From: Nemertoderma westbladi
Taxonomy: Eukaryota; Animalia; Xenacoelomorpha
Assembly (NCBI GenBank): GCA_032718475.1
Contig: JAUCBJ010000521.1
Span: forward strand, 1-43,487
Direction of reading: 5' to 3'
DNA: 43,487 bases
Part shown: positions 6,296-31,928 of the stretch, in pieces
Position numbering within the stretch: position 1 is the first letter of the stretch
How the letters are laid out: each line of letters begins with the position of its first letter
Program-made: the position numbers and the translations under genes
The notes under the pieces: generated by a model
What the model saw: the letters and a program-made list of their open reading frames with translations, nothing else
The model's database searches: none
Told to the model about the DNA's origin: nothing

Positions 6296-6841
6296 CGATG
6301 TATACTCCGTGAAATTCTGTGATGTATAGGCCTACTTCGTGAAGTTCTGTGATATATATATACTTCGTGAAGTTCTGTGATGTTATACTTCGTGAAGTTC
6401 TGTGATGTTATACTTCGTGAAGTTCTGTGATGTTATACTTCGTGAAGTTCTGTGATGTTATACTTCGTGAAGTTCTGTGATGTTATACTTCGTGAAGTTC
6501 TGTGATGTTATACTTCGTGAAGTTCTGTGATGTTATACTTCGTGAGGTTCTGTAATGCATACTTCATGAAGTTCTTTGATGTATACTTCGTGAAGTTCTG
6601 TGATGTATATATACTTCGTGATGTTCTTTGATGTATATTTCGTGAAGTTCTGTGATGTATATATTTCGTGAAGTTCTGTGATGGTATACTTCGTGAAGTT
6701 CTGTGATGCATACTTCGTGAAGTTCTGTGATGTATACTTCGTGAAGTTCTGTGATCTATACTTCGTAAAGTTCTGTGATGTATATATACTTCGCGAAGTT
6801 CTGTGATGTATATACTTCGTGAAGTTCTGTGATGTTATACT
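6296..6841. repeat. 24-28-bp minisatellite, segment 1
   Basis: Core atacttcgtgaagttctgtgatg plus variable t/tt/tat/tatat/c linker. Confidence 0.95.
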
Positions 6842-6845
6842 ACTA

Positions 6846-7727
6846 CTACTGGGTCGAGCGAACTCGGACAGTGGAAATGAGATCCTTCCAGCCTTCCCGA
6901 TTTTCCATAGTTGTCGCAATTTCGTTTCTCCCAAGTTCAGTATCCCTTTCAAGTTGATCTATATATGTTATGGCCGGTCGTCCACGACTACGCTTTCCAT
7001 TAGTTGGTTGCCAGAGAAGTAGATCTGGTATGACCTCGTCTTTACTTCGCCAGCAGTGCCCACTGAATCGTAATCTGTGTTCACGGAGGGTGGTTGATAC
7101 ATGTGGTATTGTACCATAAAGCTCGGCGTTTGTCATGTGTTGTTTCCAGCTGATGTTTAGGGCTGCCCTTAGTAGTCTTGCGTAGCAACCATCAATTTGT
7201 TGTTCAAGTGATTTAGTCAGTGTCCAGGTCTCACCCCCGTATAAAAATACACTTTCCACTGTGACTCGAAAGAACTTAGTCTTCAGGTGCCTGGAGAGAT
7301 CTGATTTCCAGATGGCATCCATTTTTGATAGAGCTACCCAAGCCTTTGCTTTCCTAACTTCTATGTCCTTTTTGCTACTCTCTATCCATGATCCAAGGTA
7401 CTGGAAGTCATCGACCTTCCTTAGTTGATTATTATCAATGGTTGTCAAGTTTCCATCAACATTAAAGGTCATGAATTCGGTCTTTGTAGCATTTATATGC
7501 AATCCAACCTCCTTAGCAGCCCTCTCCACTTTATTTAGTAGAAGCTGTGCATCTGCTAGCGTATTAGAGAGCAGGGCGATGTCATCCGCAAAGTCTGTGT
7601 CTGTGACTGTAGTTGCCGGATATTTACTACTTCTGCGTTCTTGAAGTGTGAATCCCAGATCTTCACCCTTTGTGGCCGCCCTCATTGCGTAATCCAGCAC
7701 AATTACAAATAGTAATGGTGCTAATGT
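6846..7727 (-). pseudogene. RTE reverse transcriptase C-terminal half
   Basis: TLAPLLFVIVLDYAMR, DFADDIALL, GLHINATKT, FQYLGS, YGGETWTLT, RLRFSGHCWR and RSRGRP...W motifs typical of RTE ORF2. Confidence 0.9.
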
Positions 7728-8242
7728 GGATTCCCATCAAATGTTGCGATCATAACCCTGGAATTTATATATTCGATGTTGTTTAGGGTCTTAAGTGCAA
7801 ATGGGCTTAGCAGAATTCCTTCTCCACCAATTGATGCATTGGCCGAGTTTCTTACTGCTGAGCTTGTTACTAACGTCCATCCATTTCCAATGTCATTGTA
7901 CTTCATCGCAGTGTCTTCATGACAAATCCGATGTTCTTGGATGTAGATGATGTCGATGTAATATTCCATTGCCAGAGCGACCATGTCACCCTGTTTGGTA
8001 TGTGCTTTCAGCGTGCGTGCGTTCATTGTAGCAATCTTTAGTGTCTTTTTACATTTCAACAGGCTGGTTCTTCTTTCTTCTCTGTCTTCTGTTCCAGTAG
8101 CCAATTTATCGACCCCAGCCGGGTGTACCACTGAGGGACGCGGTCCTTGTTGACCCGGGCGACGACCGAGCCGGTATTTCTCCTGGAGGGTTCTCATACT
8201 CATATCTTTCAGTTGTCGGGAGTAAACCGCTTGGGGTCGCAA
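7721..8242 (-). pseudogene. RTE apurinic-like endonuclease (APE) N-terminal fragment
   Basis: LKIATMNARTL, IDIIYIQEHR, GGEGILLS, SRVMIATFDGNP; cut off by the deletion junction. Confidence 0.85.
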
Positions 8243-8709
8243 CTCCTACAAGCGTCTTCGCAGTAGGTCGCCGTTGGTTGATTACCTTCCGCCGATCTTT
8301 TCAGCATGTCTAGCCGTTGGTTGATTACCTTCCGCCTATCCATGGCCTACAGCCCTGCTGCCGACTGCAGGGGTCCATTTGTTACACCCTGAACCAAGTG
8401 TGCCTCCTGGGTTAGGTTACCCAACACTGGTAGAGAGAAGAGCATCCAGTATAGACAGGGCGGGGCGTGTATCATCTCTAATGCAGATGCGTATCAAGCC
8501 TTTGCCTTCAATGGTGCCCTAGTCGCTATAGCCCTCAATGACTTATTTAGTTGACGGGGCTAAACCAACCCACTCTTGATCAACTAAATAATGAATAGGC
8601 TATGCTTATCGGGCCTGCCTACTGGGCTGACAGGTACAGGTAGTACCACATTACTGCCATAGTGGTAGCAGGATCTGGGGACCTGACCTGACCTGACTCA
8701 TCATCATTC

Positions 8710-11700
8710 GTGATGTTATACTTTGTGAATTTCTGTGATGTTATACTTCGTGAAGTTCTGTGATGTATATATACTTCGTGAAGTTCTGTGATGCATACAT
8801 CGTGAATTTCTGTGATGTTATACTTCGTGAAGTTCTGTGATGTATATATACTTCGTGAAGTTCTGTGATGCATACATCGTGAAGTTCTGTGATGTTATAC
8901 TTCGTGAAGTTCTGTGATGTTATACTTCGTGAAGTTCTGTGATGTATATTATATACTTCGTGAAGTTCTGTGATGTTATACTTCGTGAACTTCTGTGATG
9001 TATATATACTTCGTGAAGTTCTGTGATGTTATACTTCGTGAAGTTCTGTGATGTTATACTTCGTGAAGTTCTGTGATGTTATACTTCGTGAAGTTCTGTG
9101 ATGTTATACTTCGTGAAGTTCTGTGATGTTATACTTCGTGAGGTTCTGTGATGCATACTTCGTGAAGTTCTGTGATGTATACTTCGTGAAGTTCTGTGAT
9201 GTATATATACTTCGTGAAGTTCTGTGATGTATATATACTTCGTGAAGTTCTGTGATGTATATACTTCGTGAAGTTCTGTGATGTATATATACTTCGTGAA
9301 GTTCTGTGATGTATATACTTCGTGAAGTTCTGTGATGTATATATACTTCGTGAAGTTCTGTGATGTATATATACTTCGTGAAATTCTGTTATATATACTT
9401 CGTGAAGTTCTGTGATGTATATATACTTCGTGAAGTTCTGTGATGTATATATACTTCGTGAAGTTCTGTGATGTATATATACTTCGTGAAGTTCTGTGAT
9501 GTTATACTTCGTGAAGTTCTGTGATGTATATATACTTCGTGAAGTTCTGTGATGTATATATACTTCGTGAAGTTCTGTGATGTATATACTTCGTGAAGTT
9601 CTGTGATGTATATATACTTCGTGAAGTTCTGTGATGTATACTTCGTGAAGTTCTGTGATGTATATATACTTCGTGAAGTTCTGTGATGTATATATACTTC
9701 GTGAAGTTCTGTGATGTATATATACTTCGTGAAGTTCTGTGATGTATATATACTTCGTGAAGTTCTGTGATGTTATACTTCGTGAAGTTCTGTGATATTA
9801 TACTTCGTGAAGTTCTGTGATGCATACTTCGTGAAGTTCTGTAATGTATATATACTTCGTGAAGTTCTGTGATGTATATATACTTCGTGAAGTTCTGTGA
9901 TGTTATACTTCGTAAAGTTCTGTGATGTATACTTCGTGAAGTTCTGTGATGTATATATACTTCGTGAAGTTCTGTGATGTATACTTCGTGAAGTTCTGTG
10001 ATGTATATATACTTCGTGAAGTTCTGTGATGTATATATACTTCGTGAAGTTCTGTGATGTATATACTTCGTGAAGTTCTGTGATGTATATATACTTCGTG
10101 AAGTTCTGTGATGTATATACTTCGTGAAGTTCTGTGATGTATATATACTTCGTGAAGTTCTGTGATGTATATATACTTCGTGAAGTTCTGTGATGTATAC
10201 TTCGTGAAGTTCTGTGATGTATATATACTTCGTGAAGTTCTGTGATGTTATACTTCGTGAAGTTCTGTGATATTATACTTCGTGAAGTTCTGTGATGCAT
10301 ACTTCGTGAAGTTCTGTAATGTATATATACTTCGTGAAGTTCTGTGATGTTATACTTCGTGAAGTTCTGTGATGTTATACTTCGTGAAGTTCTGTGATGT
10401 TATACTTCGTGAAGTTCTGTGATGTTATACTTCGTGAAGTTCTGTGATGTTATACTTCGTGAGGTTCTGTAATGCATACTTCATGAAGTTCTGTGATGTA
10501 TACTTCGTGAAGTTCTGTGATGTATATATACTTCGTGAAGTTCTGTGATGTATATATACTTCGTGAAGTTCTGTGATGTATATACTTCGTGAAGTTCTGT
10601 GATGTATATATACTTCGTGAAGTTCTGTGATGTATATATACTTCGTGAAGTTCTGTGATGTTATACTTCGTGAAGTTCTGTGATATTATACTTCGTGAAG
10701 TTCTGTAATGTATATATACTTCGTGAAGTTCTGTGATGTTATACTTCGTGAAGTTCTGTGATGTTATACTTCGTGAAGTTCTGTGATGTTATACTTCGTG
10801 AAGTTCTGTAATGTATATATACTTCGTGAAGTTCTGTGATGTTATACTTCGTGAAGTTCTGTGATGCATACTTCGTGAAGTTCTGTAATGTATATATACT
10901 TCGTGAAGTTCTGTGATGTTATACTTCGTGAAGTTCTGTGATGTTATACTTCGTGAAGTTCTGTGATGTTATACTTCGTGAAGTTCTGTGATGTTATACT
11001 TTGTGAGGTTCGGTGATGCATACTTCATGAAGTTCTGTGATGTATACTTCGTGAAGTTCTGTGATGTATATACTTCGTGACGTTCTGTGATGTATATACT
11101 TCGTGAAGTTCTGTGATGTTATACTTCGTGAAGTTCTGTGATGTATATATACTTCGTGAAGTTCTGTGATGTATATATACTTCGTGAAGTTCTGTGATGT
11201 TATACTTCGTGAAGTTCTGTGATATTATACTTCGTGAAGTTCTGTGATGTATATATACTTCGTGAAGTTCTGTGATGTTATACTTCGTGAAGTTCTGTGA
11301 TGTTATACTTCGTGAAGTTCTGTGATGTTATACTTCGTGAAGTTCTGTAATGTATATATACTTCGTGAAGTTCTGTGATGTTATACTTCGTGAAGTTCTG
11401 TGATGCATACTTCGTGAAGTTCTGTAATGTATATATACTTCGTGAAGTTCTGTGATGTTATACTTCGTGAAGTTCTGTGATGTTATACTTCGTGAAGTTC
11501 TGTGATGTTATACTTTGTGAGGTTCGGTGATGCATACTTCATGAAGTTCTGTGATGTATACTTCGTGAAGTTCTGTGATGTATATACTTCGTGACGTTCT
11601 GTGATGTATATACTTCGTGAAGTTCTGTGATGTTATACTTCGTGAAGTTCTGTGATGTATATACTTCGTGAAGTTCTGTGATGTTATACTTCGTGAAATT

Positions 11701-12303
11701 CTGTGATGTATACTTCGTGAAGTTCTGTGATGTATACTTCGTGAAGTTCTGTGATATATATATACTTCGTGAAGTTCTGTGATGTTATACTTCGTGAAGT
11801 TCTGTGATGTATACTTCGTGAAATTCTGTGATGTATAGGCCGACTTCGTGAAGTTCTGTGATGTATATATACTTCGTGAAGTTCTGTGATGTATATATAC
11901 TTCGTGAAGTTATTTGATGTATACTTCGTGAAGTTCTGTGATGTATATATACTTCGTGAAGTTCTTTGATGTATACTTGGTGAAGTTCTGTGATGTATAT
12001 ACTTCGTGACGTTCTGTGATGTATATACTTCGTGAAGTTCTGTGATGTTATACTTCGTGAAGTTCTGTGATGTATACTTCGTGAAGTTCTGTGATGTACA
12101 CTTCGTGAAGTTCTATGATATATACTTCGTAAAGTTATGTGATGTATATATACTTCGTGAAGTTCTGTGATGTATATATACTTCGTGAAGTTCTGTGATG
12201 TTATACTTCGTGAAGTTATGTGATGTATACTTCGTGAAGATCTGTGATGTATACTTCGTGAAGTTCTGTGATCTATACTTCGTAAAGTTCTGTGATGTAT
12301 ATA
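8710..12303. repeat. 24-28-bp minisatellite, segment 2 (roughly 135-140 copies)
   Basis: Same core as segment 1; resumes in phase after the RTE insertion. Confidence 0.97.
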
Positions 12304-14204
12304 TATTCGAAGAGACAGTAACAAATACACGAATCCTGCAATATCATACTATAGAGTCTGTGAATCAAAGCATAAATCCGACCTTCTCACCAAAACAGTA
12401 AACTCTAAGTAGGCAAACCTATTGCAGTATCGGTCTCTTATAACCGGTGAGGCAGAAAACAGTCTACGAACGGACAAACTTCGATAAAACAAAATCCCGC
12501 GCAGCGAATCCTAAAATCGGGCTGACTCACTGACGGACTAAAGGCGCTCGTACACTTTGCCGCGGTGTGATTTATATGATGAAAAAGCGCTAGCTACAAA
12601 TATAACCAGCGGGAAAATCAGCAGTGCGAACAAATTATTTCGTATATTTTGAGGTGTAAATAATTCCTAAACGCACGTGTGTTTTTAATTCATAGGTCAA
12701 AATTGATTTTTATCCTTCATATACTCTCATTTACTGGGTCCGGCGTTTATTTTACAAATATTCTAATATTTTGGTAACTTGTAGGTCCAATACTTACAAA
12801 TGACAAGGCTCCTTCCCCCTTTGGTGTATTTCCAGGACTCAAATTCAGGCATAGGGTTAATACTACGCCCAGAATTCGGCAATTTTATCTACCAGGTCCC
12901 TAATACTAAGAAGAAATGTGTTAGTTTACTACTGTAGGCGTACGGTTACAAATAGCTATCCTGGCTCTTATCTGGAATTTTAGTCACCTAGGTAGGCTGG
13001 GTAACTTCCTATCAGGACGTTGGCGGGGACACGGTAGGTGTTAGTATCCCTAATAGCCTTAATTTATTTTCGCCTAGCAATAAACTGCCCTACCGCCTGA
13101 ACGGTATAATCTCAATTCAGAGAAAACACAGCAATCCTCTCCTGGCCTACAAGTTCCAACGCAAGCAATAAACACCGTGTACTGCCGACAAGCCACCAAC
13201 GCACCTATACCTGACAATGAGTTAGGCGTACAGTTTTGCTGCACCCTACCAATGTACATGCCGGGTAATGGTGTGCCTGTGTCCTATCTGCGTACGGGTA
13301 TCTCTGTCTAACTTTCCTTTTCTCCTTCCCCCGTAGGAATATGAAGGGGTTCTGCTGGTCTTCCAAGAATTGGGACAATACAGTTCTTAATTTAAATTTT
13401 TGGCGTACAGTGTGTCGCTACTCCTACCGTCGATCTTAGGTCTTACACTTAGGTAGCGAAGCATCGAACACTGTCTAACCTTCAGGCGATGGGCGAATAA
13501 CTCGAATAGATATTGTGGGCGGTCTCCTGTTCACATTCCCCGATGTTCCCGTTCACTGCTGCGGCCCGATGTCTAGCCGGCCATCCTGTTCTTTAGGGGC
13601 GTTCACCGTGGTGAAGCATAATAAAACAGATAGGAAAAGGCAGATATAACAAGTATTTCTAACTTTTATTACAAAAGATATACATAAACGTAACAAGAAA
13701 CTAATAGATAACTAATCATAGATAGAAGAAGAATAGTATTGGATTGATTGATAACTAATGAACGAAATCGCACCTTATATAGCAAATTTGTGCTGCAATC
13801 AATCGAGAAAATTCTCGATTGTTCTATAAGTTCTAATGGGTTTTTAAAGATAACTATTGGTCCAGCGAATATATAACTTGCACGACATTGGTTACAATCT
13901 AATAACTACAGTCCCATTGGTTAATCTAGGTACAGACAAATGCAATTTAATTTGTAGCGGTCAATTTAAATGAGTTGAAATTCTGTACAAAAGATAATTC
14001 GCACCTACAAGGATTCGAACTCAATACCTACTACATATATAATTTCCAACGCTCTACCGACTGAGCTACTGAACCACTTGAATAATCATCGTACAAATAG
14101 ATATAGTAAATACAAATGAGGACTTAATGTAATCTTTTAGCAAAGTTAATTCGAATAAAATAAAATTTTGAAAATCCACGGCATTTAGAGAATATAATTC
14201 TATA
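12304..14204 (-). repeat. 3' LTR (1901 bp)
   Basis: Matches 30453-32350 from tattcgaagagacag to aatataattctata. By eye at least 5 A/G substitutions and one 20-vs-17-nt block difference. Confidence 0.96.
14001..14075 (-). promoter_or_regulatory. tRNA-derived A-box/B-box (Pol III type 2 promoter-like) module in 3' LTR
   Basis: Minus strand GGTTCAG-TAGCTCAGTCGGTAGAGCG...GAGTTCGAATCC, tRNA-like box spacing, T-run shortly downstream; no acceptor or anticodon stem. Confidence 0.65.
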
Positions 14205-14759
14205 TCGCTCCATGAAAACAGGATATTATCGTGCATAAAATATACGGTTTTCACCAATACTAAATCAAATTATGGAATACTTGGGACGTACTTACATATT
14301 TACAAATTAAATCTCTACAATTACCTCTACATAATAATTCGATACAAAAATAATTACAAATTCAAACTTTACGTATTTAAGGCTTTATTAAGTAAGTACA
14401 ATATAAATATAATTTAAATTCACCAAAATAAATCTATTGCATCTCAAATATTGCATAAATTCAAACAATCACAAATACTAATACTACTTAAATATAAAAC
14501 AAATTGCATAAGTTCGGATAATTTCAAATAAATCACAAGAAAGGCTCACAAGTCTTCCGTCTGCTCTTGCCTTCTATTTACTGTAAATACAAATACTGCT
14601 TCTTTATAAAATATAAATTGCATAATATTCAAACAATAAATTGCGTAAGTTTGGAATGACTACAAATATAGCACTTTCTAAATATAAATCTTTACTAAAT
14701 TGCATAAGTTTAGAATAATACTGCATAAGTTTAGAATAATATAAACTCCTTTTACATCT

Positions 14760-15000
14760 CAAATATGAAATATAAATCTTTCAAATATAAATCTTTCAAA
14801 TATAAATCTTTCAAATATAAATCTTTCAAATATAAATCTTTCAAATATAAGTTCCTTCTAAATATTAAACTTTCTAAATTTCAAAATTGGAACAATACAA
14901 ATACATAAATTTAGAACAATATAAATTGCATAAACTTAGAATAATATAAATTGCATAAATTTAGAACAATATGAATTGCATAAATTTAGAGCAATACAAA
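14760..15000. repeat. AT-rich tandem repeats in the element's 3' UTR (15-bp aaatataaatctttc x4-5; about 25-bp aattgcataaatttagaacaatata x4)
   Basis: Seen directly. Confidence 0.75.
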
Positions 15001-15121
15001 TTTTAAACAATACAAATTACCTAAACAATTCAATTTACATAAACAATACATAAAACAAACATAAAATAAACAATTCACAAGAAAGGCTCACGAGTCTTCC
15101 GTCCACTCCTTCCTTCCCGCT

Positions 15122-16276
15122 TTAACGCTTAGTGGATCGAGCCCTGCCGCGTCCTCGAAAACTGTGTATCGGCGATTTAGCTCGTGATATGGGACTTGTG
15201 GGGCGAGCCACTGGTTTACTTTGGACGTTGAGAGACGGTACAACCGTTTCCTCACATATTCGTCCCTTAGTCATCCCAAATCCTCGTCCAATCCCTCGTG
15301 ACCGATCTGTTGTATCTACCGCTGGTAAAACGTCTGGGAACGCACGGAAAGCGGACGACGCAGACCCAATAGAAGCTTGCGCCCCCTTTTGATCAGCTGG
15401 TATATGTCCCGATCCTCCTTGCGGTTCTCTGGGAAGCGAAACCGTATCCCGAGTAATTCGAATAGTCAGTTCGTATCCCTTTCGTTCTTCAACGTTGATA
15501 GTTTTCTTTAACTGTTGGCCCACTTTCTGGACCCTTATGATCCTACCCTGTCCGTCCTCCCGAGGGTGACGTGCAGACGGCGCGACCGGAGTAGCTGGTA
15601 TGTTGGTCGCCTCTAGGACCTCCTCTTCCTCGAATACGCTCGCTCGTATACGTTTATGGTAGAACGCGGCTCGGTACGCCCATGCGACGGTTAACCAAGC
15701 TCCCTTGTTCCGCTTTTCCGTTCGGAACCGATCAAATTCACCATATGTGATACGATTGACTACTTTCTGGAAGTTCCATGTATTCTTATTGTCAGGGTGT
15801 ATCTGTAACAAATATTCGCGCACAACTCGGAATCCACTATCATGAGGCAAAATATCAACTACCTCGATGAGTTCGTCGTATTGTGGCATAGCGGAGATAT
15901 ATCCTTCCGACATCATAGTTTGAGGATTTACCGCCCAAAATCCAAGATGCGCTCTCATCGGGAACCGTCTTCTTTGCGCTGCTACATGTTCGTCAGCCAA
16001 ATCTTCCCACTCATCAAATAGTTTTCGCACGAGTTTTACAGATTCGTGTTCGTAAGGTATATCTCTCAGTTGGCATTCAGATGCTCGATGTCCCTTTATA
16101 TTGCAGTAAGTGCATTGAGCCATAAATCTCCAGCAAGTATAAAATGTATGGGACCCTTGATCTCCACACCATCCACAGATTAGTTGAGTTGTAGTAATGT
16201 GCTTTCCACTGCACTTTGTCGAATGATGTCCAGCGACACCACATTTACCACACATCGTATTAGCAGGGTACCACAC
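15122..16276 (-). CDS. Accessory protein with three CCHC zinc knuckles and a basic RG/RS-rich C-terminus (possibly the frameshifted C-terminus of the upstream ORF)
   Basis: CGKCGVAGHHSTKC, CGWCGDQGSHTFYTC, CTYCNIKGHRASEC; ends RGRGRARSTKR. Frame open from 16309; first ATG at 16255. Confidence 0.75.
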   Translation of the reverse strand: MWYPANTMCGKCGVAGHHSTKCSGKHITTTQLICGWCGDQGSHTFYTCWRFMAQCTYCNIKGHRASECQLRDIPYEHESVKLVRKLFDEWEDLADEHVAAQRRRFPMRAHLGFWAVNPQTMMSEGYISAMPQYDELIEVVDILPHDSGFRVVREYLLQIHPDNKNTWNFQKVVNRITYGEFDRFRTEKRNKGAWLTVAWAYRAAFYHKRIRASVFEEEEVLEATNIPATPVAPSARHPREDGQGRIIRVQKVGQQLKKTINVEERKGYELTIRITRDTVSLPREPQGGSGHIPADQKGAQASIGSASSAFRAFPDVLPAVDTTDRSRGIGRGFGMTKGRICEETVVPSLNVQSKPVARPTSPISRAKSPIHSFRGRGRARSTKR

Positions 16277-16287
16277 TCGCTCATATA

Positions 16288-18846
16288 TTAGATCGCCAAT
16301 CGGATCAGACTATAACAGATCAAACTATAATCATAATCGTCTGGATCAATAGGTTGGTATGTTTCAGAAGGTTGTATGCAAACTACAGCATCTGTTGCTT
16401 CTAATTGTCGAATCTCCGTCTGAGATTTCTTCGGGAGGTTCCTTTCAATCTCAAGAAGTTCCTCTAAAGGATCATCGATGGCCGTCGTTACTTCGAAATC
16501 ATCACCTAAGTGACCGATAGGCGCACGCGTCTGCCGTGATTCGTCCGTAAGCTCCACGATACGTTCTCCTTCATAGGGTAACAATGTAAACATAGATGGT
16601 CTTTCGATAAGAGATCCCGCACAGCGAAGATACACGTCTCGAAATATACTAAATCCTGCTCGAGTGAAGGCATTACACTGAGCGTCGGAATTGTAGAAGG
16701 GTTCGAGAAACCGTCTAAACACATCGGTATGAATTCTCCCTTCCGCGTAGAATGTATGATCTTCTCCGAGGCAAAGTGGATGTATTTTAAGAGTCCGAGA
16801 CACAATGTCAGCGACTAAGCAAACATTCACTGATGACTCTATCGCTAAATAATATTGTAGTAACGCTCTTGGAGGTGAAGTAATAGCCCAATATACGCAT
16901 CCTCTCCATTTGAGCTGTGATTCAAACTCATTTATATCTGGAGTATCACCTTCTCCATACGTTTCGATATACTTTGTTCTTTTACTTTCCTTATAATCCC
17001 AATTAAACATCAAGTAGGAAATATATTCAGTTCCGGTTTTCTGAGTATCATACTCACGGAAGTATCCTTGTTCTATAGACCACAGTATAAGAGGTCGAGT
17101 GTCGACGTAAGGTGTCGGTAGTCTGTCGTCACTGTCCGACATGCCGGCGAAGTCGCTAATTAAGTCCTCTCTTACTCCTGATCCAATCTTTACAACAGTT
17201 TTATCTAAAATCATATTTCTCACTGTCTTTGGTAACATTCTAGCATCGATATTGCAAGCCTGGTCCATTTTCTTTACTATATTAGTGATGAACTGGTGCC
17301 GCTTTGTAGTTCCTGGAGGTATCGGCATTCGCTTGTCGCTCCTTTGTCTACTGAAAACGTGCAAAACTCCGTCTGCCGCTCTAATTTGTATAGTCTTGGA
17401 GGTTAGACTCTGCTGATGGCTGCCGCCCTCGTTATCATAAAACATGTAACCGTTTTCCTGAAACGATCTAAACGTCCTATTCCATTCGTCCAATAATTCT
17501 TCCGAAGGTTGCCAAATCTTCTCTATGTCTTTCTCGTCCTCGAAACGAATGACTTTACCTTGCCAGTCTGCAGCGATATCTGTATCCGACTCAAAGGTTC
17601 CTGTTCCAATCCATAAGCGAATTGTTTTGGTTAAATATCCTTTCAGGTTACTCGGAGCTATATCAGCGCCAGCTCTATCCAGTTCCCTAAAGTCTTGAAT
17701 ATGAGGCGGAACATTATGCACAACCTTTTGCGTAATATGTCTACGTAAATCGTATATCTTAACCATATCGCTTAGAACAACTGCAGGAAGAAACTCTAAG
17801 TTCGAAATGATTTCCGGATGATCCACAATAGGTATTTCATACGTTGTATCTTGTCGAACTGGTATACTAATAGGGAAATTGAGTGTCGTACTCAATGGTT
17901 TCGTAGTTGAAGTACTATACGGTTGCATTTCTCTTGTCCTTTCCGGGGATGCAATCTGTAGTCTCTGAATAACGTTTTGAGCAAAGTTTATACTCTCGAA
18001 AACTTCCGGTGTCATCTCCTTAGCTGAAGTTTGATTGTGTGACGTCCAATGGTAAGGTAGGATCGCGAGTCTTCCGCCCCATTCTTCCATCTCACCTTTC
18101 TCGAAAGCCTTGTAGGCTCTGTATAGGCTGAGAGCTTCTTTCTTTTCGCGGGTTGACTGAGTCGCCTCGTCCAGCGTAAGTTCGAATACATCGGGTTCAA
18201 CAACCTTAGGTGGGTAAACGACAATTTCTCCCGCCTTTGGTCCAGTCATAGCGAATGAATGATATGGATTCGATAAAGGATACCCTCCTTCCTGGTAGCG
18301 TAGTTGTTGATGGTTCGAACACCTCGCCAATATCGGTTCGGGATTTTCCTTATTCAAACGCATCGGAATCGCATTTCGTTGTTCGCGCATACAAGATCCG
18401 CATTGATAATAAAGTTTATAAACTGAAAATGCTTCCTTTGTTTCTCTATCGTCCCCTCGAGTTCGTCTGTAAAGATGCATTCCATCGAATTCATCACGTA
18501 CCGCAGGCATAGGTTCGTGTGCTTTTAGGTATTGCATAGTATGATACAAACGACTAATTTCGGTATCGGGATCTTCGCTAATATCTCCCGTATCACATAA
18601 AGCGTCGTACGGGTAAAGTTCATTGAAGGTTTTGCGTAAACTTTCGATTCTTTCATTTAACGCGTTTTGCCTTCTCTTTATTACATTCGAGTCATATTTC
18701 GTCTTTGCGAGTTTCGCTGTACTTTCTGATAAATCTTTTATACCAAATATAGTGTAATCCTTAGCTCCAAATCGTTCGAATGGCGCTGCTGCTTCCTCTT
18801 GGATATCATATCCCCATCTCGGCTCTCCTTGTATCCCTTTCGCCAT
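16288..18846 (-). CDS. Accessory 852-aa protein with a putative DEDDy 3'-5' exonuclease domain (WRN/EXD/Mut-7-like)
   Basis: Intact ATG-started ORF. Motifs in order: MFYDNEG (ExoI), TIQIRA, LPKTVRNMILDKTVVKIGSGVREDL (ExoII), YVDT, W...P...QYYLAIES (ExoIII-like, D replaced by E). N-terminal CGSC...CSNH. Confidence 0.72.
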   Translation of the reverse strand: MAKGIQGEPRWGYDIQEEAAAPFERFGAKDYTIFGIKDLSESTAKLAKTKYDSNVIKRRQNALNERIESLRKTFNELYPYDALCDTGDISEDPDTEISRLYHTMQYLKAHEPMPAVRDEFDGMHLYRRTRGDDRETKEAFSVYKLYYQCGSCMREQRNAIPMRLNKENPEPILARCSNHQQLRYQEGGYPLSNPYHSFAMTGPKAGEIVVYPPKVVEPDVFELTLDEATQSTREKKEALSLYRAYKAFEKGEMEEWGGRLAILPYHWTSHNQTSAKEMTPEVFESINFAQNVIQRLQIASPERTREMQPYSTSTTKPLSTTLNFPISIPVRQDTTYEIPIVDHPEIISNLEFLPAVVLSDMVKIYDLRRHITQKVVHNVPPHIQDFRELDRAGADIAPSNLKGYLTKTIRLWIGTGTFESDTDIAADWQGKVIRFEDEKDIEKIWQPSEELLDEWNRTFRSFQENGYMFYDNEGGSHQQSLTSKTIQIRAADGVLHVFSRQRSDKRMPIPPGTTKRHQFITNIVKKMDQACNIDARMLPKTVRNMILDKTVVKIGSGVREDLISDFAGMSDSDDRLPTPYVDTRPLILWSIEQGYFREYDTQKTGTEYISYLMFNWDYKESKRTKYIETYGEGDTPDINEFESQLKWRGCVYWAITSPPRALLQYYLAIESSVNVCLVADIVSRTLKIHPLCLGEDHTFYAEGRIHTDVFRRFLEPFYNSDAQCNAFTRAGFSIFRDVYLRCAGSLIERPSMFTLLPYEGERIVELTDESRQTRAPIGHLGDDFEVTTAIDDPLEELLEIERNLPKKSQTEIRQLEATDAVVCIQPSETYQPIDPDDYDYSLICYSLIRLAI

Positions 18847-18874
18847 TATTAGAGGTAATGGTTACATAATCATA

Positions 18875-18908
18875 CTACTAGAGGGAATACAACAGAGTTT
18901 ATTATTAG
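18875..18908 (-). promoter_or_regulatory. Putative 3' splice acceptor for the accessory-ORF mRNA
   Basis: Minus strand CTAAT...CTCTGTTGTATTCCCTCTAG|TAG about 30 nt upstream of the ATG at 18846. Confidence 0.55.
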
Positions 18909-19505
18909 TTGTGAGGAGATGTGAGAGTTTTCGTCTGCCCTTTTGGCTCGACAACGCTCTAACCTCCAACCCATAGCCTAAGATCTAAGGTTTCTTTAGT
19001 GACACACTGTCTTATCTAAAATTTTTTGCCGAAATAAAAACGAATTTGGGCTAAACTGGCTGTGAGTCTAAAATACTCACTTTTTGATCCCAAACTATTA
19101 TCAGAAAATAAGCAATCAAGAGTTAGTAATAAATATAGGGAAGTCTATTTATTGACGTAACTTATTGAAACAAGACCGTGTAAAATTTAATTAAATTTTA
19201 AGAAAGGCTCGCAAGTCTTCCTTTCTTGTTTCTCTAATTTTAAGTTCCACCCGACTGTACCCTGAAATCTATTCACTGGAGAAAATTTTAAAAATTTTTC
19301 AAATCCAAATGGATTGTCTAAAATTTCGAAAATGTCTCAATATTGTGAGTTCCAAGTAGAATTCCATTTCTTATACCTACAAATCCCGCTCCTATGTGAC
19401 ACATAAGGGTACTACCCTCAATGTTCACATATAAAGACAATGGAATTCTACCGCTGTCCTTACTACGGTGTACAGGTACGTGGAAATCTATTTGTAAACT
19501 CCTTA

Positions 19506-21373
19506 CTATTTACTAACATTTGTTGGAGACTTGTAATCTCCAGACTCGTTTCGCGTCTCTTCAAGAAGTACGAGACGTTGTGTCGGTCTGTCTACTGTAC
19601 GACCGTCAATTGTCCGTACAGTCACAGTTCTTGTCACTCCATCCATAGATGGATGTGTGTCTAGAATTACACCTGTTATCCAGAAGCGTCTTTTTAGATT
19701 CACTTCTGCTAATAGCACATGATCTCCCGCTCTTAAAGCGCGAGTATTGTTGTACCAATTTGTTCTGGCAGAAATAGAGGGCAAATAGTGATTTTGCCAT
19801 ATTTCCCAGAATTTGTTAGCTAGTAGTTGCGTGATTTTCCACGCTTTTCTACCGTAGCTGTCGCCTTCTATTGGAATAGAAATAGGCATTAATGTAGTCG
19901 GTGCCTGCATAAGCAGGTGTGCCGGTGTCAAAGCAAACTGGGATTGTTTGTCATCGGGTACTAATACTATTGTTCTAGTATTTAGTATTGCCTCGATTTC
20001 AACAAACAATGTTGTCAGTTGGTCGTCTGTCAAGATGTGGTTTACTGGAATTACCTTTGCCATGGCTGTTTTTATAGATCTAATCAATCTCTCCCATACT
20101 CCGCCTCTCCAAGGACTGTCTGGAGGATTAAACTTCCAAACAATCTTGTAAGGACGTAGTTCGTTTGAGATTTGATCATGATCTAATTTCTTAAAGGCTC
20201 TAGCAATTTCATTTCGAGCACCAACAAAGTTTGTACCTTGGTCTGAGTGCAAGCATTTTACTAGTCCGCGTCTAGCGATAAATCGCCGCAATGCTAGTAT
20301 AAACGCGTTGGTGGAAAGATCCATCACACGTTCAATATGAACTGCCCTACTGGACATACATGTGAAAATCAGTCCCCAGCGTTTCACTAGTATACGTCCA
20401 CGTTTCATATGTATGGGACCAAAGCAGTCAATTCCAGTCTCTGTAAAAGGTGGTCTGAATGCTTGAAGTTGTGCTTGTGGAAGTTCACTCATTTCTTGGG
20501 TACCTATTCTAGAGTGTACCTTTTTACAAATAATACACGTACGTGTCACTGAACTTAACGCTTTACTGGGTCTAATTAATACAAATCTTGTACATAAGTA
20601 GGAAAGACAGTGATGTCTTCCAGCGTGTTTCAGATGTAAATGTGCGTCCAGTATCATTGCACGTTGTAATTCGTGATGTTGCGGTATTATTATCGGGTAC
20701 CTAAAATTTGTGTTAAAGTCAATGTTTTGAAGCCGAGATTTATGACAAATTAAGCCATTATAAATTATCGGACTCCAACTCAATATTGGTGACGACTTGA
20801 TTGGTTGACCTTGACTTATAGATGTGAATTCGCGCGCGAAATATCGCAATTGATAATGGCGAATTAATTTAATTTCTCACCTGTCAATCTCGGTCAATGT
20901 GAGTCGACATGTAAAGTCGCGTTTGCCTTTGACGTATTGTACAAAACGTACAATCCACGCTAATTTTCGGCACGCGTTGGTCCAAGAATCTGTTAGGTTT
21001 ACAATACGGTCGACGTAAGTATTTGTGACGTCATCAGGTAAGTCAATGGAGAATTTGGAAGGTTTTGATTTACTAGATGGGCCCACGAGTCCGCCGGTAG
21101 GTATTCCCTTGTTGACTGTTGATCCGTCCGGGTCTACGAGTAATTTGTCCTTCTTTGTTTTCTTACCTTGATTGTCAGTACTTTGTAAGTCGATCGTTAA
21201 TGGTGGTTTGAACTCTATGGGATCACTGGGTTTCGGTAAACTTATTTTTCTGCCGATATTAATCCCAGGTCTCACCGTAGGTTGTAAGGTTGGTATGTCT
21301 CTTGAGCGTAAAGTAACACCTGTATTTACATTTGCGTAGGTACTACCCACATCTGTAATACATGAGGTTTCAC
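19506..21373 (-). pseudogene. pol: Pol C-terminal part: linker plus integrase, with in-frame TGA at 20877-20879
   Basis: HHCC (AHLHLKHAG...CIICKK), DDE core (GIDCFGP, SDQGTNF, GGVWERLI) and BEL-type C-terminal domain (W..GVILDTHPSMDGVTRTVTVRT...RPTQRL). ORFs 20877.. and 19506.. share one frame. Confidence 0.92.
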
Positions 21374-22614
21374 TGTGCTTATGGTTACTCAAGAGTGTTC
21401 GCTTGTGTACTTTTGGGCTCCTCCCCGAGGCGCACCCACGAGGCGGACACCTTTCCACCACCCTTGGGGCCAGTCCGACAGATGTTATTATCAGACCGGG
21501 CCGGAGGGTGGCCTGATGCTTCCCGGGTTCTGTTTTCGGTCCCCCGATCACACCAGCACAGCTCGTCGAACGTGTAGCCAGATGGGCGGCTACTGTCAAC
21601 TTACTGTGGCCTGACTGTACATTGAGCCAACTCAAAGTATAACAAAGAGTCAACCGGCAGGTGGACCAGTCGATAGCGATCGAGCACCAAGGACGCCCTT
21701 GGGCCTAACCGACGGTCTTGTCCCATGTGGGCTTGCGCTACCCAACATGGAATTTTGACTCGTTTTCACCTGCCTCGCCGGCAGTATTTAAAAAACAATA
21801 CTGTCTGTAGCTCAAAAGCTACTGAACAAGTAACCACTTACCAGTCACTGTACACGTGTACTCAACAGATGTTCACGAAATCAAGTACACAACGGTAAGC
21901 ACAAAATCGAACACATACCATGCACACACAGAGACATAATCGGGAAAGACAAAATCGGGGTCAAAATTGAGAGGACAAATTGTATCGACCAACCACCAAG
22001 TCGAGAGTACCTTATTTTACCGACAGGGTAAAATAACTTTGTGTGCACAAAGTTATTTTACCGACAGGGTAAAATAACTTTGTGTGCACAAAGTATGCTG
22101 GGGTGCAGTAAAGTATGGTCCTACTAATACCAGCGGCGTCTGGTCCAACTGGCAAGGGTTCCCATACCCACTCGCAGTGGCCACACATACAATCACGTGT
22201 ACTCACGTACCCACAGCAACAGAAAACTCAAGACCCGACGGTTTATTCCAATGCCACCAAAGACCAAGTCAGCTGAACATGGAGACAATAACATATAGTA
22301 TCAAAAAAAAAAAAAAACAGCTGACGGTCAATGGAACCATCCAAGCCCCAAGCAAACTGCCACTGATCGCCCACATACAAAACATAGTTCACGCCACATG
22401 AACCACAAATCACGCCATGCCACCACCCCTACTGTGTACAGGACTGGCAGTACGGCAACAGGCCGACTAGGCGATACCACGGCACCATGGCAATTCATGG
22501 TTCGTTAGACACGAGGGCCTTCAGTGACTCCCTAGCACTATACTACCAATTTTAACGTGCCCCCAGCCCCTCACGAGTCTGCCGCCGCCTGTTAAACTCA
22601 CCCCTATAGAGACC
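21374..22614. mobile_element. Unclassified 1.24-kb insertion in pol
   Basis: Breaks the pol frame between RNase H and integrase, with a change in strand composition. Flanked by tcac at 21370-21373 and 22615-22618. Internal 41-bp palindromic duplication and an A15 run. Boundaries are inferred. Confidence 0.55.
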
Positions 22615-25600
22615 TCACCTCTTTGGGTAAGTTTGGTAGTTTGTCAATACAAGGCCGCTCCAATAGGGAAACTGTGGCTTTACTATGTGTCGCTACATTA
22701 CTAATGTCTGGTAGAACATTTTGTGACATGTCTGGTAAAATGTTTCGCGGAACATCCGGCGAAATATCTAGTGACATGTCTGGCAAAACGTCTGGTTGAC
22801 CGTCTAGTAACGCGTCTGGTTGTTTGTCATTAGAAGGCTGCTCCAATAGAGAAACTGCGGCTTTACTATTTGTCAATATGTTACTAGTGTCTGGTAGAAC
22901 ATTTTGTGACATGTCTGGTAAAATGTTTCGCGGAACATCCGGCGAAATATCTAGTGACATGTCTGGCAAAACGTCTGGTTGGCTGTCTAGTAACATGTCT
23001 GGTTGAGCGTCTGGCGATATGTCTGGTTGAGAAAGGCTCGCAAGTCTTCCTGCCCTAACTTTGTGAGTTATATTCTTCCATTTCGCCTTTGGTTTCTTCT
23101 TAAGTTTCGCCGTTGTCTTTTTCTTTGCTTTACCTTTCTTGGGTTTTTTAATTTCGGCGTCCTTAGGGATAGTATTAGACTTGTTATCGTAAAGTGGTGG
23201 CCAATGTTGTACTGATCTTTGCAAGAATTGTGGTCCGTGTTGCCAAAATTTCTTGTTTTCCGGTTTACAGAATTCCTCAGGCATCATTCCTCGTGACGCA
23301 ATATCAGCTGGATTTTGTGGTCCGGGACAATGTCGCCAATCTTCCTTTATTGAACGGTCTAGAATTTCTGCACGACGGTTAGCTACGAATGTCTTGAATT
23401 CAAGTGTATCGTTGTTTATGTAAAATAAAACCAACGTCGCGTCAGTCCAATAAAATATCTGTAAACTTGACTGTAATTCCGTCTGTATAAGGTTCACGAT
23501 TGTGGTTGACAGGGTTGCGGCTTGTAGCTCAGCGCGTGGTGTCGTCATATACTTAGTAGGCATGGTCTTAGCCTTAGAAGTAATGAGCGAAACATCAAAC
23601 TCGTCTGAGTCTACTTGTCTGCGCAAATACGCTGCCACACCAAAGCCGTTGTCACTGGCGTCTGAAAAACAATGTAATTCTAAGTTGTCAGGAAATGTCG
23701 TCTGTAATGGAAAGTACACCCGGGGTATGGAATAATCCTCTAGCGAAGATAATTGTGCCTCCCAAGTCTTCCATAAGTCCACTTGTTCGGATGAGATCGG
23801 TTCGTCCCATGTCAGTCCATCTTTCCAAATACTGCGCATGTAAATTCGTGCTTGCAGTATTATTGGGCTGATGAAACCTAATGGATCGAACAGTCTACTT
23901 AGTTTCGACAAGCAAGACCTCTTTGTCAGAGAATCCCCTTCAGCGTCCAGTTTTACTTTCACTCGAAAGTTGTCTGTGTTCGGGTCCCAAAATAGTCCCA
24001 ACACCTTGGTCGTCGGCAGTGGTTCGAACTCTAAGTCAATATCACCACTCCCACGTTCAGTCGTTCCGAATGAATCTACCAATTCGGCACTGTTTGAGGC
24101 GAACTTGGTGAGGTTAAAACCTCCGCCTGCTAAACAGTCCCGTAATTGATGTGCTACGGTGATAGCACGTTCTACTGTATCACAACTTTGTAACCCATCG
24201 TCTACGTAAAAGTCTCGTTCTACGATCTCGATTATCTCTGGGTCATATATATGTTTCTGATCCCTAGCGGTCTGTTTTAGGGCGTACATAGTGCAGTTTG
24301 GGCTGTCCCTGGCACCGAAAACGCGAACTTGCATTTGGTAAGTCGCCGGTGGCTGACTTAAGTCTCCATCCGGGTACCAGAGGAACCTCAAACTGTCTCT
24401 GTCTCGCTCTAACGCTCGCACTTGGTGAAACATCGCTTCTACGTCACAAGTAAATGCTACTTGGCGCTGACGGAAGCGCATAATCACCCCCATGAGATAA
24501 TTATTCATGTTTGGTCCATCCATCAACTCACTGTTGAGAGACATTCCTTCAAACAGGGCCGCGCAGTCGTTAACTACGCGTACTTTATCAGGTTTGTCGG
24601 GGTGTCTCACATAGTGATGTGGCAAGTAGTATGTCTGGTCTGTCACAATCTCTGGGTTAGTCATCCTGATAGCGTACCCTTTTGTCAAATACGTCTCCAT
24701 CTGAGTATTGTACTGCAGATGGGCTTTCTCGTTCTTTAATAGACGTTGTCGTATTGAGTGTAGACGTCTTAAGGCTAGCGGATAATTATTGATAAGTTTA
24801 GGGCTTTGGCTACGCCATAGCATCCCTACCTCATAATGTCCGTCTTTCGTCTGGCGGATAGTATCTTCCATGATCTTCAAAGATTGTTTCTCTTGTTCCG
24901 ACATACACGGTTCATAACTACCGGGTTCTGCTGTATCTTGTTCTAACCACCTGATAGTTTTCTCTGTTAACTCTTTGTCCAGTGCAGCTTGTTCCACTTG
25001 ATGGTTTCTTAACGCGTCATCATCGACGGGCGTTGTTGAAGTTATTGGTGTAGATAGACTCGCAAGCCTTCCGGCGTTATCATCTGTCGTCGATGGAACC
25101 TCTGCCTGACTCGTCTTCTTCTCATGCTCTATACTAACCGTGTGGATTGGCTGCTCTTTGTGACTTATCATATTTGCTACACACGTCGTACTCGTAAAGT
25201 TGTCGTGTTTCGTCGAACGTAGTGTAGTGTAGTCTATGTCAGGTGAAAAGGAATGAATCGAAGTTGTAGTTAGTAAACTACATGTACTTTGTACATCGTC
25301 TTCCTCATCACTTATATCCAGTGTGCGCACAGGCGCTCGAGTATACCACCCTATCGGAGTTCTACAGGCGTAAGCGTTTCCCGCTACAACTACCGATGGT
25401 CTGGTTTCCCACACTTGATGTAGGTTGAATTGGTCCGTCCCGATCAGCATTGCTACTGACCTATAGTTGACAGGACATTCAGGTACACCGAGGTGTCTGA
25501 AATACTTACGGTCTTCTAAAGATTGCTCTGGGACTGGACCTAGTAGGTTACTAAAGTCCTTTGTGGCCGCAAAAGTCAAATCCTTAAAAGGTAACAAAGA

Positions 25601-28600
25601 CCTCTCCTTCTCGCTATGTTGCGATTTTGGAAGAAGAGTGTCCAAGTTTAACTTAACTCGTGTCACTGGTATTGCACGTTGTCCATGCATACTACTTACG
25701 GTGTAACTGACATTCTTACCTTGTCGGAGATCCGTCACAACATCAGCTACCTTCTCATCCACATAGCTGTGAGATGAGGCTGAATCCAAGATAGCGTAGA
25801 TCCGTTTGCTCCCCTTTGTGCCCGTAATCTTGACAGGAATTATACTAAACCCCTTTAGTTGATCAGGCGTCAGAAGCGCAATCGATGGTTGTTCGTCTCC
25901 AGTATCTAAGTAAACGTCGTCGTCTTCCGACTCTTTATCCGACGATCCTGATTGTTCCGAGAAGCAATCTCTAATGTGCGTCACGAATGTCGGTGTTGTT
26001 TTCGACTCTCTACCTTTATATGCTGTGTTGCATCTTGCTGCCGCTTCTGGGTGTTCCCTGGTGAAGCGTTTGGTCGGCGTATGGCTGTCTGTATGGAGCA
26101 AGCCGTCGTGGTTGCGTCCACAGTAAGGACAGGTGTCAGTATTTGGGCAGTCCTTACGGACGTGTCCATGTAGCGTACACCGCCAACAAGAATCCAAAGG
26201 CCGTATTTGCAGTCGTCGTTCCTCCGAGTTCAATTCGCGGAATAGTCGACATCCCTTTAAGTTGTGGCTAGTATGTCGCTTACCAATTCGTTCGCAATAT
26301 TGGCAACCGCTGAAGTCTGTGCTCAGTTGCTGTTGGGTCTGTTTGGTTCCAATGGGTGCGGATACCTTATTACCGTCCGAAAATTGTCGGGTGTCGGTCG
26401 ATGTTGCGTAGGTAACCGTCTTTGTAGATGTCGTTGATGGTTTCTGTCTGTTTGATGAAGGTAGTGTGATTCCTTCCGCCACAATATGTTGGTCCGTGTA
26501 GTTCGAACGCGTCTCGACTACTGCCTCTCTGGATATCAGTAAGTAGACGTCTTCCAACTTCAAGAATCCGCCTCTCTCTTCTCGCTGATATTCTATCTTT
26601 CGCCACTCCCGACGAAGTCGATGGTGCAATCTTCCTATTATTTTCAATAGGACTGTCGGAGTGTTCGCGTAGTCAAGTTGTCCAATCGAACGTAGTGTAG
26701 TAATGGCGTTCTTAATCTCGTCAGCTAATTTCAGTAAGTCAACGGGTTTTGTAATAGCCCCTCCCTTACAGAGTTCTTCTATCACTGACTTAGCCATACT
26801 TACGGTGCCTCCGTAAATCGATGTTAAGCGATCGTACGCTAATTCGAAGGCATCTGGTACACCAACAAAAGTCTCCGCTAGACGTTTCGGTTCTCCCGAT
26901 AATGTTTGGAGCAGGTAGTTGAATTTCTCTCTCGATGTAAAAGCACACACAGCGATCTGAGATTCGATGTAGTCTACAAAGGTGTGCCAATGTTTAGAGT
27001 TCCCGGAAAACTTAGGTGGTTGTTGCACCGGTAGTCCTTGTCTAGCTGCGAATTTCGCTATTTCTTCTGCAACGTTCAAAGTTTCGCGTCCTTGGTTGGT
27101 GATCTGGTTGGTGTTCTCTCTTCTAGGCGCTTTTCTTTGATACGATGTGTTGGTCGATGGTATTTGTCTTTGCGGAACTTTTGGATTTCTATTGTGCTCG
27201 AATTCGGAATTTCTCGAACTGTCAGTGTGAACTTCCTCCAAGCGTTCCTCTATCTGGGCCAACTTGTTGACAACTGGCCTCAGAATGTCGGCAAATTGTT
27301 GAGTACTGATTGCGTCCGTTGGTTGTAACGCCTTTTGTGTTGGTGTATTCTGTGGAGGATTGTCAATAAATGAATTATCCGAACGCTCACGTTTACATTC
27401 GTCGGCCGCTCCTGTTCTAAATACCTCGCGTTCCGGGTAATCCGACTCGCTTGAAGTACTACTGTCGCCTGGATACGGTGGACGACGTGCTCGTGTCCGT
27501 TGCGTCGTTCGAATTCTAACATTCCGTTTCGGAACATCGTCTACTGGTCTCCGTTGTTCGGTAGGCTCGCGGGTCTTCCTCGAAGTCGTAGATTGCGATG
27601 TAAACTGGTTAAACGGTCGCGTATCCACTGGTCTCCGTTGTTCGGTAGGCTCGCAGGTCTTCCTCGAAGTCGTAGATTGCGATGTAAACTGATTAAACGG
27701 TCGCGTATCCACTGGTCTCCGTTGTTCGGTAGGCTCGCAGGTCTTCCTCGAAGTCGTAGATTGCGATGTAAACTGGTTAAACGGTGGTCGAGTGACAGCG
27801 TTTGAATCTAAAGGCCTTGTAGGCCTAAACGTCATTGGGTATGTGTAGTGCGTAACGGGTTTTGGTGTCGAAGGTGGACTCACCTGTTTTGTTGTTATCA
27901 GTGCAGGTCCGGTCAATAAACTACTACAATCTGTAATCGGTGGGTTACTTACCTTGACTTTCAGAATAGGCGACGACATTGCTCTTGGCGGTACGAACTT
28001 GTCCGGAATAATAAACCTGTGTTCCGTCGCACCATGGATAGGAGAAATATTACTACTACCCGCAATCGAAACAGGTTCCTTAGTCGTAACTGGTGCAAAC
28101 ATAGGAGTTACTTGAGGGAATCTTTGACATAAGTCTTTAACTAGTTGTCTTTCTCGCCCAGGTGCCCCTACACTTCCTTCCTTCATTCGTTCCTGAATTT
28201 GGCGGTGCCTTACCTCTATCTGGTCCAAATCATGTCCGTCGTTAGATCTCATCGATCGATCGCGGGCTAGAAGATCCAGATTTTCCTTGGCTTCGGCTAG
28301 TTCTCTCGCCTTCCTTTCGAGTTCGAAATGAAGTTTAACTTCCTTCTCGCGTTGTTCCGTCTGTTGTTGTTGCGCCTCGAACTCCGCTTGTCGTATAGCT
28401 GATTGAGCCTTTATTTGCCGTTTTTTCAACTCGGCTCGTGCTTCCGAAGCTCGCCTTTGTTCGTCTAATGCTGCCGCTGCCGCTTGTCGTTCCAACTCAA
28501 CTGCTGCCGCTTGTCGTTCTAACTCAGCCGCTGCCGCTAACGCTGCCGCTGCCGCTTGTCGTTCCAACTCAGCTGCTGCCGCTTGTCGTTCCAACTCGGC

Positions 28601-29644: not shown

Positions 29645-29687
29645 TTCGGTAGTTGCAAGTCAAGTAAAGTGAGTGTCAAAGTATCAA

Positions 29688-29860: not shown

Positions 29861-30439
29861 AATCAGATAACGATATACGTTATCAAAAGGTAGATTAAAT
29901 ACAATAATACGGACTAATTCAGCAATAAACAAAGAAATCGTACGGAATGCATAAATACTTGAGACAGTGGAACCCACAATAATTTTAACTAATACGGTAA
30001 TGCCTAACTTATTTATGCAACTTTTCGAACTCACCCCCTCCAATGATTCTCCAGAAAAACAGATTCCCAGATACAAACCGGACGTGAACCTTTCCGTTTC
30101 CAGCGTTGCGGACGAAGTGCGATTTTCCCAACCAAAATTGTTGAGTTATCTATCTCCCAAACTTGCTAAACACGGTCTTGCTCTCGTTACAGTCTAGAAA
30201 TGAGCTCTGAATACTGAAAAACAAAAGAGTTAGGTTTTACTTTTACGAAAATTTTGTACCGGTACAATATGGTATTTAAACCCTTTTAAACACCGGTATT
30301 CAATTCCAAAATTTTTACACGCGTTTCAAATCAAAATTTTGTTTCAAAATATCAGCACTTAGCTAATCAAATATAAATTTTTACCTCAAAATACAAAATT
30401 TTCAAATAATTTTGTTCTACTGAACCGTAGTTCAGAAGA

Positions 30440-30452
30440 TTCATATTCCTAC
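30440..30452 (-). other. Non-tRNA primer-binding site candidate (GTAGGAATATGAA)
   Basis: Abuts the 5' LTR end, lacks TGG, and is the exact reverse complement of LTR 31494-31482 (13345-13333 in the 3' LTR). Confidence 0.65.
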
Positions 30453-31919: not shown

Positions 31920-31928
31920 CTTATATAG
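31920..31928 (-). promoter_or_regulatory. Candidate TATA box of the LTR promoter (CTATATAAG; 13774-13782 in the 3' LTR)
   Basis: Consensus-like TATA followed about 20-30 nt later by Inr-like TCATT/TTAGTT/TCAATC. Confidence 0.45.

Follow-up and report, generated by a model that had tools for sequence, protein, structure and literature searches.

What kind of protein fills the env position of a BEL/Pao retrotransposon when it has neither a signal peptide nor a membrane anchor? The question is raised by a 20-kb long terminal repeat (LTR) element on the minus strand of contig JAUCBJ010000521.1 of Nemertoderma westbladi (assembly GCA_032718475.1, positions 1 to 43,487), the whole stretch of 43,487 nucleotides (nt) being referred to here as the window. 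One open reading frame (ORF) of the element, ORF3, had been proposed in an earlier sequence-only reading to encode a DEDDy-like 3′-5′ exonuclease. Judged from its sequence, ORF3 is a remote, non-canonical (D-E-D-E) relative of the PF01612 family, lying below Pfam-level membership. Among copies of the element its exonuclease domain is clearly kept under purifying selection, and it is dispensable in cis.

Exonuclease motifs in ORF3

All of the motifs quoted in the sequence-only reading are present along ORF3 in the order that it gave: FYDNEGG at residues 469-475 (nt 17442-17422), TIQIRA at 485-490, LPKTVRNMILD at 538-548, VKIGSGVREDL at 552-562, YVDT at 580-583, W653 and YLAIE at 666-670. The placement of ORF3 in the env position of a BEL/Pao element was likewise borne out, the ORF being located between the integrase and the 3′ LTR. 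No transmembrane segment or signal was seen, as had been claimed; the maximum 19-residue hydropathy is 1.39 for ORF3 and 0.77 for ORF4, the ORF that follows it, so the signal peptide and transmembrane anchor of an env-like protein are absent. The similarity to the DEDDy exonucleases is remote, with Exo I, II and III in order. D471, E473, D561 and Y666 are all present and the fourth acidic residue is E670, which leaves the D-E-D-D plus tyrosine set incomplete and agrees with the earlier observation that the last catalytic aspartate is replaced with glutamate. The 427 residues that precede the domain (18846-17566) include a long predicted helix, and the CxxC...CxxH pair within them (about 149-179) may form a zinc site.

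Evidence for the exonuclease fold

Residues 428-678 of ORF3 very probably adopt the DEDDy fold. In the ESM Atlas, 24 of the 30 matches to residues 430-740 fall in PF01612 clusters, and with residues 420-695 all 30 named matches are to PF01612 (best score 0.93, with 174 shared features), one of the matched clusters being named Werner syndrome-like exonuclease. PF01612 is carried by only 11-50% of the members in the clusters shown, a minority in several, and scores of 0.9 or above arise for 4-10% of shuffled proteins, in a calibration that is not one for protein parts. A targeted hidden Markov model was built from 120 bacterial WRN/EXD2-like proteins, the seed profile of which has E 1e-26 against WRN-exo and 5e-17 against EXD2. 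This gave 5.9 bits for ORF3 (P 3e-4) on the ExoII segment at 538-562, a score that exceeded those of all 1000 shuffles and all 33 real decoy ORFs. In a collinear block test nine family blocks were found in order across residues 428-678, at the positions given by the earlier reading; none of 500 shuffles scored as high in each of three settings and 16 decoy pieces scored far lower. With tighter spacing, 0-1 of 150 shuffles were as high.

A number of results weigh against this assignment. ORF3 does not reach the Pfam gathering cut-off for PF01612, the Pfam check that had been suggested giving no match, and it is without a match in Pfam, NCBIfam and the sequences of the PDB (the best being EXD2 at E 2), in two word-based protein searches and in an HMMER search over 1.84 billion representatives. 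Alignment by hhalign with a three-sequence profile gave a probability of 3.9, and the fourth acid is glutamate rather than aspartate. Two blocks, the N-terminal one (15.4 bits) and ExoII (17-20 bits), supply the bulk of the block score, with ExoI providing only 0.8-2.8 bits and ExoIII only 2.7-5.0 bits. The final test had two blocks added, the N-terminal one (WQGKVIRF at 428) after it had been noticed; in the first collinear version one of 400 shuffles was as high and ExoI and ExoIII were placed elsewhere, and in one nine-block setting a shuffle reached 33.6 against 33.7 for ORF3. The DEDDy (WRN-exo/EXD2-type) reading and its placement of the Exo motifs are thus supported by the ESM Atlas, the targeted model and the nine-block test, but not by a confident three-dimensional model: AlphaFold predictions from single sequences had pLDDT values of 30.5 and 33.0, and Foldseek on such models is uninformative.

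Two other placements were set aside. A candidate ExoI at 431 proved to be the N-terminal strand. An ExoIII-like segment, LEATDAVV, occupies residues 815-822; taken alone it outscores the block at 663-678, but it follows ExoII at a distance of about 250 residues and is without the tyrosine. A search of metagenome contigs with ORF3 gave no match.

Variation among copies

Contigs from four runs in three studies (9030, 5846, 3829 and 404 of them) could be placed on 9.2 kb, and the family is thus multi-copy. Differences among copies, which the sequence-only reading had suggested as a check for selection, were taken from 16800-17480, where 40 of the 85 variable places were listed, by the tool's choice, and each difference was classed singly. 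Third positions account for 27 of the 40, and 29 are synonymous where 29% would be expected (P 2e-8), giving a rough ratio of nonsynonymous to synonymous polymorphism (pN/pS) of 0.16 in the domain from the listed differences. None of these alters a catalytic residue, the codon of D561 varying synonymously, and no indel is listed in the domain. Contigs that are 8-17% different from the window are free of gaps over up to 1887 bases of ORF3. Against selection on the domain it counts that the 40 differences are a part selected by the tool, and that in a smaller list (40 of 789 places) the synonymous share is 4 of 9 for ORF3 and 8 of 14 for ORF4; for the integrase it is 8 of 10 in the same list.

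The domain is missing from derivatives with at least four distinct deletions, and one of these deletions was found in three of the four runs. It is because several such derivatives occur that the domain is taken not to be needed in cis.

ORF4 and a predicted fusion

The zinc-knuckle ORF downstream, ORF4, which probably encodes part of the same protein, had been overlooked. Its knuckles match PF00098 with E 0.02, under the cut-off, and in the window copy it overlaps the end of ORF3 by 22 nt in another frame. At the junction, all three of the listed contigs (three runs, three studies) differ from the window in length and predict a single frame; two junction contigs, diverged from the window by about 10% and 17%, were checked by span. 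Because these contigs predict one frame with ORF4, ORF3 is probably cut short in the window copy and other copies probably continue into ORF4, an intervening stop being still compatible. What had been described as an intact 2.5-kb ORF is therefore an open frame, but probably not a whole one. The usual protein of the family is predicted to have about 1,200 residues, made up of an N-terminal part, the exonuclease, an acidic linker, three knuckles and a basic tail.

A similar arrangement is seen in the RNase D of T. brucei (TbRND; PDB 7C42/7C45), an RNA trimmer described in the available part of PMC7797062 as an exonuclease followed by a linker and then several CCHC fingers. TbRND, by the same source, is a host enzyme with four fingers and a canonical DEDD set, whereas the element described here has three knuckles, in a fusion that is a prediction and is absent from the window copy. 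No direct sequence similarity was detected between ORF3 and TbRND.

Self-priming signature

The earlier reading had also passed over a self-primer signature. Typically, BEL/Pao elements have TG...CA LTR termini and a tRNA primer site, neither being strictly defining. The element here has TAT...ATA termini and no TGG, and carries a self-complementary site instead (Table 1). The 13-bp complement starts at offset 0 from the LTR and has the polarity that would prime copying of U5; self-priming is defined, in the available part of PMC6317226, by a complement to the LTR of at least 10 bp whose start is 0-5 bp beyond the LTR. None of 3226 internal 25-mers has a 13-nt complement in the LTR. An AATAAA is located 277 nt downstream of the predicted self-primer segment, and if the RNA starts at that segment the predicted pair probability is near 1 for 12 of the 13 primer pairs. 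No tRNA genes are present in the window. It would seem likely, as far as the nucleotide sequence can tell, that the element primes its own copying without a tRNA.

The elements named as self-priming in the available text of PMC6317226 are Tf1/Sushi, Tcn1 and TAR/Houba/Osr-1. In these too, as described there and in the accessible part of PMC4600332, the primer binding site is complementary to a stretch of the 5′ LTR that lies ahead of the poly(A) signal. They are Gypsy (Tf1/Sushi, Tcn1) or Copia (TAR/Houba/Osr-1) elements, whereas this one is BEL/Pao. No BEL/Pao element is named in the portions of PMC6317226, PMC4600332, PMC3601003 and PMC6934838 that are available, and a self-priming BEL/Pao, if true, would extend tRNA-free priming to a third LTR superfamily.

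A dispersed sense-strand motif

A 21-nt motif is dispersed along the element, with seven matches on the sense strand where 0.00 would be expected. In its 14-mer form it has 12 matches on the minus strand and none on the plus strand, in coding and non-coding DNA and in different frames; three copies are within an 84-bp tandem repeat and the copy at 23772 may be chance. The core, CUYGYGAG, is self-complementary with G-U pairs. At the two CG positions of the seven 21-mers there are 7 C-to-T and 0 G-to-A states, and for this reason the variation appears to fit an RNA pairing signal, for dimerisation or packaging, better than CpG decay. No consistent hairpin was found (z 0.0 to -1.9, four copies), nor any match in Rfam.

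Possible functions of the ORF3 protein

The fold, the kept catalytic residues, the selection, the architecture and the dispensability in cis together lead us to favour, tentatively and as a serious possibility rather than a probability, an RNA-directed 3′-5′ exonuclease that acts in trans against RNA-level host control. We infer the RNA substrate from the roles of the Mut-7, Nibbler and WEX-type exonucleases, its relatives; a small-RNA role is plausible. The accessory protein would be made from a spliced subgenomic RNA; candidate splice donors exist in the leader of the element, as for env-type spliced messages, and of the 18 acceptor-like sites along the element five have a branch motif, the candidate ORF3 acceptor being one of these. 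By analogy with trypanosome RNase D, the knuckles would bind single-stranded RNA so that its 3′ end enters the two-metal site. Trimming of RNA 3′ ends in trans would then shield the element RNA from host control, the candidate substrates being either the small RNAs of silencing or tails that have been put on the RNA of the element itself. The subject of mut-7 is also raised in PMC5408684. It counts against this reading that rotifer elements with such an ORF are still covered by small RNAs (PMC5408684).

The glutamate at the ExoIII aspartate position, the zinc knuckles and basic tail, and the 12 sense-strand motif copies would also suit a protein of the same fold that is catalytically dead or weak and serves as an RNA-binding adaptor, in the manner of Egalitarian or EXD1, recognising the element RNA, perhaps at the dispersed motif, for transport or packaging; the exonuclease-homology domain of Egalitarian binds RNA stem-loops about 15 Å from the catalytic residues (PMC13186709, available in part). 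Such an adaptor seems rather unlikely, as D471, E473, D561 and Y666 are all kept and unchanged in the 40 of 85 variable places, and the rotifer ORF3s also deviate (DEED) and yet were judged intact (PMC5408684). Alternatively, the exonuclease might mature the self-primer. Once the 13-nt LTR segment had paired with the primer binding site and the RNA had been cut, it would remove the G-rich 3′ tail left unpaired, as far as the duplex, and so provide the 3′-OH for minus-strand synthesis. The self-primer signature is present with no tRNA-type site, the primer segment is located between CCCC and GGGGG and could be offered in a loop, and RNase D-type enzymes trim structured RNA ends (PMC5408684). 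Primer maturation is nonetheless improbable: the Tf1 primer is made by the RNase H of the reverse transcriptase, to go by the title of Levin 1996, Tf1/Sushi and TAR are not described as needing such an ORF in the available parts of the sources, and the co-occurrence was seen in one family only. Also improbable is a broader scheme, that of a self-priming BEL/Pao lineage in which the tRNA has been replaced by the element's own RNA and the exonuclease-knuckle protein finishes the primer or manages the RNA through the dispersed self-complementary motif, making it an RNA 3′-end processing enzyme built into replication.

A DNA substrate might be considered given that the closest profile family is WRN-like and the WRN exonuclease acts on DNA. 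It is, however, highly unlikely that ORF3 is a DNA-directed 3′-5′ exonuclease editing complementary DNA ends or mismatches during reverse transcription or integration: the CCHC knuckles point to single-stranded RNA, the protein is encoded by a separate 3′ ORF with packaging into particles not evident, and the family is not visibly low in variation. We also think it very unlikely that the motif match is coincidental and that ORF3 folds differently or represents an atypical env-like protein. All standard searches were blank, and the frequency of high Atlas scores among shuffled proteins and their lack of calibration for protein parts would agree with this; yet two different kinds of method coincide on the family and the region, and no signal or transmembrane segment is present.

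Relation to known systems

For exonuclease cargo as a class there is already a precedent in Ty3/Gypsy elements of bdelloid rotifers. Juno and Vesta, and the Athena/Terminon elements, carry a DEDDy ORF3 with the acidic set DEED, activity not being shown (Rodriguez 2017, PMC5408684), and the rotifer exonuclease ORFs are cited as known in the available parts of PMC6338049 and PMC6431247; that of PMC8220671 has no exonuclease. Both the rotifer ORF3s and the one described here are RNase D-like exonuclease ORFs after pol, with no transmembrane segment and an altered acidic set, and by analogy our ORF3 would work like the rotifer class. Differences are the BEL/Pao host element, the acids (D-E-D-E versus DEED) and the much longer protein with its predicted triple knuckle. 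Selection is purifying here, whereas rotifer ORF3 variation is near neutral, as tested on env- and GDSL-like ORFs (PMC5408684). The earlier statement that no BEL/Pao with such cargo was known holds in that none was found in the literature, although Repbase, Dfam, subscription journals and supplementary files were outside the scope and may hold one; the rotifer precedent for the class had been missed.

The nine blocks that ORF3 has in common with WRN-exo, EXD2, Mut-7 (Nibbler) and plant WEX follow the same order; among them are the N-terminal 'F.G.I' strand and K.G.GV..D. ORF3 differs from these exonucleases in being below Pfam detection, in having insertions of about 20-40 residues in three loops and in the change of the last aspartate to glutamate.

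The exonuclease ORFs in the env slot of rotifer Gypsy elements had been described without evidence of selection or function. A second LTR superfamily with an exonuclease ORF, under purifying selection and with a predicted module for RNA binding as well as naturally occurring deletion derivatives, suggests that retroelements have repeatedly captured RNA-trimming enzymes, and the element provides a system for testing counter-silencing against RNA processing and RNA transport.

Architecture of the element

The element is a young insertion of a multi-copy BEL/Pao retrotransposon. Its two 1.9-kb LTRs are identical at 1887 of 1896 aligned bases and are accompanied by a short target-site duplication, the register of which is slightly ambiguous as it sits in a TA run. 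The domain order is gag, protease, reverse transcriptase, RNase H and integrase, with the BEL/Pao-type models PF03564, PF05380 and PF18701 over the cut-off in this order and YVDD and knuckles visible in the translation. Coordinates are collected in Table 1.

Table 1. Positions in the window of the element's genes, repeats and predicted signals.
Feature	Position	Strand	Details
5′ LTR	30453-32350	-	1898 bp; termini TAT...ATA, not TG...CA; aligned against 3′ LTR
Predicted self-primer within LTR	31482-31494	-	exactly complementary to the 13 nt that follow the LTR; lies between C4 and G5 runs
Primer binding site, self-priming type	30440-30452	-	no TGG start
Predicted hairpin directly after primer binding site	30416-30439	-	C(UACG)G loop; z -2.68; 5 of 200 shuffles fold as well
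ORF1 (gag, protease, reverse transcriptase, RNase H)	22604-29659	-	2351 residues stop to stop; PF03564 E 4e-11, PF05380 E 1e-42
Interval interrupting pol in window copy	21399-22628	.	about 1.2 kb; contigs join across it in 4 of 4 runs
Integrase part of pol	19506-20876	-	PF18701 E 1e-21; PF17921 and PF00665 both under cut-off; in-frame stop before
Candidate splice acceptor	18878-18925	-	branch-like CTAAT, pyrimidine tract, TAG; about 30 nt before ORF3 ATG
ORF3	16288-18846	-	852 residues; 1-427 without family match, one CxxC...CxxH pair
Predicted DEDDy-fold (WRN-exo/EXD2-type) domain	16813-17565	-	residues 428-678; D471, E473, D561, Y666, E670
ORF4	15122-16309	-	395 residues stop to stop; three CCHC-type knuckles, nt 16252-16073; basic RG-rich tail
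3′ LTR	12304-14204	-	5-bp target-site duplication TATAT within 24-28-bp satellite
Dispersed motif GGAAGACTYGYGAG(CCT)	14538-29556	-	21-mer at 29556, 25072, 23050, 19221, 18075, 15100, 14558
Dispersed motif, 14-21 nt		-	29556, 27747, 27663, 27579, 25072, 23772, 23050, 22583, 19221, 18075, 15100, 14558

The pol of the window copy is broken by the 1.2-kb interval and the in-frame stop. That a young insertion has a broken pol suggests that the copy was mobilised in trans. The interval itself contains a T run and a 41-bp tandem duplication with a palindrome, and many further contigs cover it; a GT-AG intron was ruled out by the sequence ends. BEL/Pao elements are usually smaller than 20 kb, and ORF1 is inflated by in-frame tandem expansions at 27543-27785 (84 bp), 28465-28627 (27/72 bp) and 22634-23005 (183 bp).

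A search of metagenome contigs with the integrase found one BEL locus, with 34% integrase identity, which has no ORF3-type gene in the 0.7 kb after pol and unrelated cargo; the same search of viral contigs gave no match.

Surrounding repeats

A 24-28-bp satellite at 6297-12303 and 32354-32627 hosts both the BEL/Pao element and an RTE-like long interspersed nuclear element (LINE) fragment (6846-8245; PF00078 E 2e-11). Further along, a CR1/L2-like LINE at 36519-40360 has in-frame 30-bp tandem arrays, of about 20 copies between the endonuclease and the reverse transcriptase (37977-38586) and about 12 before the endonuclease (39922-40288). The segment at 1623-5486 is a homogeneous 45-bp tandem array of 86 copies with 97% matches.

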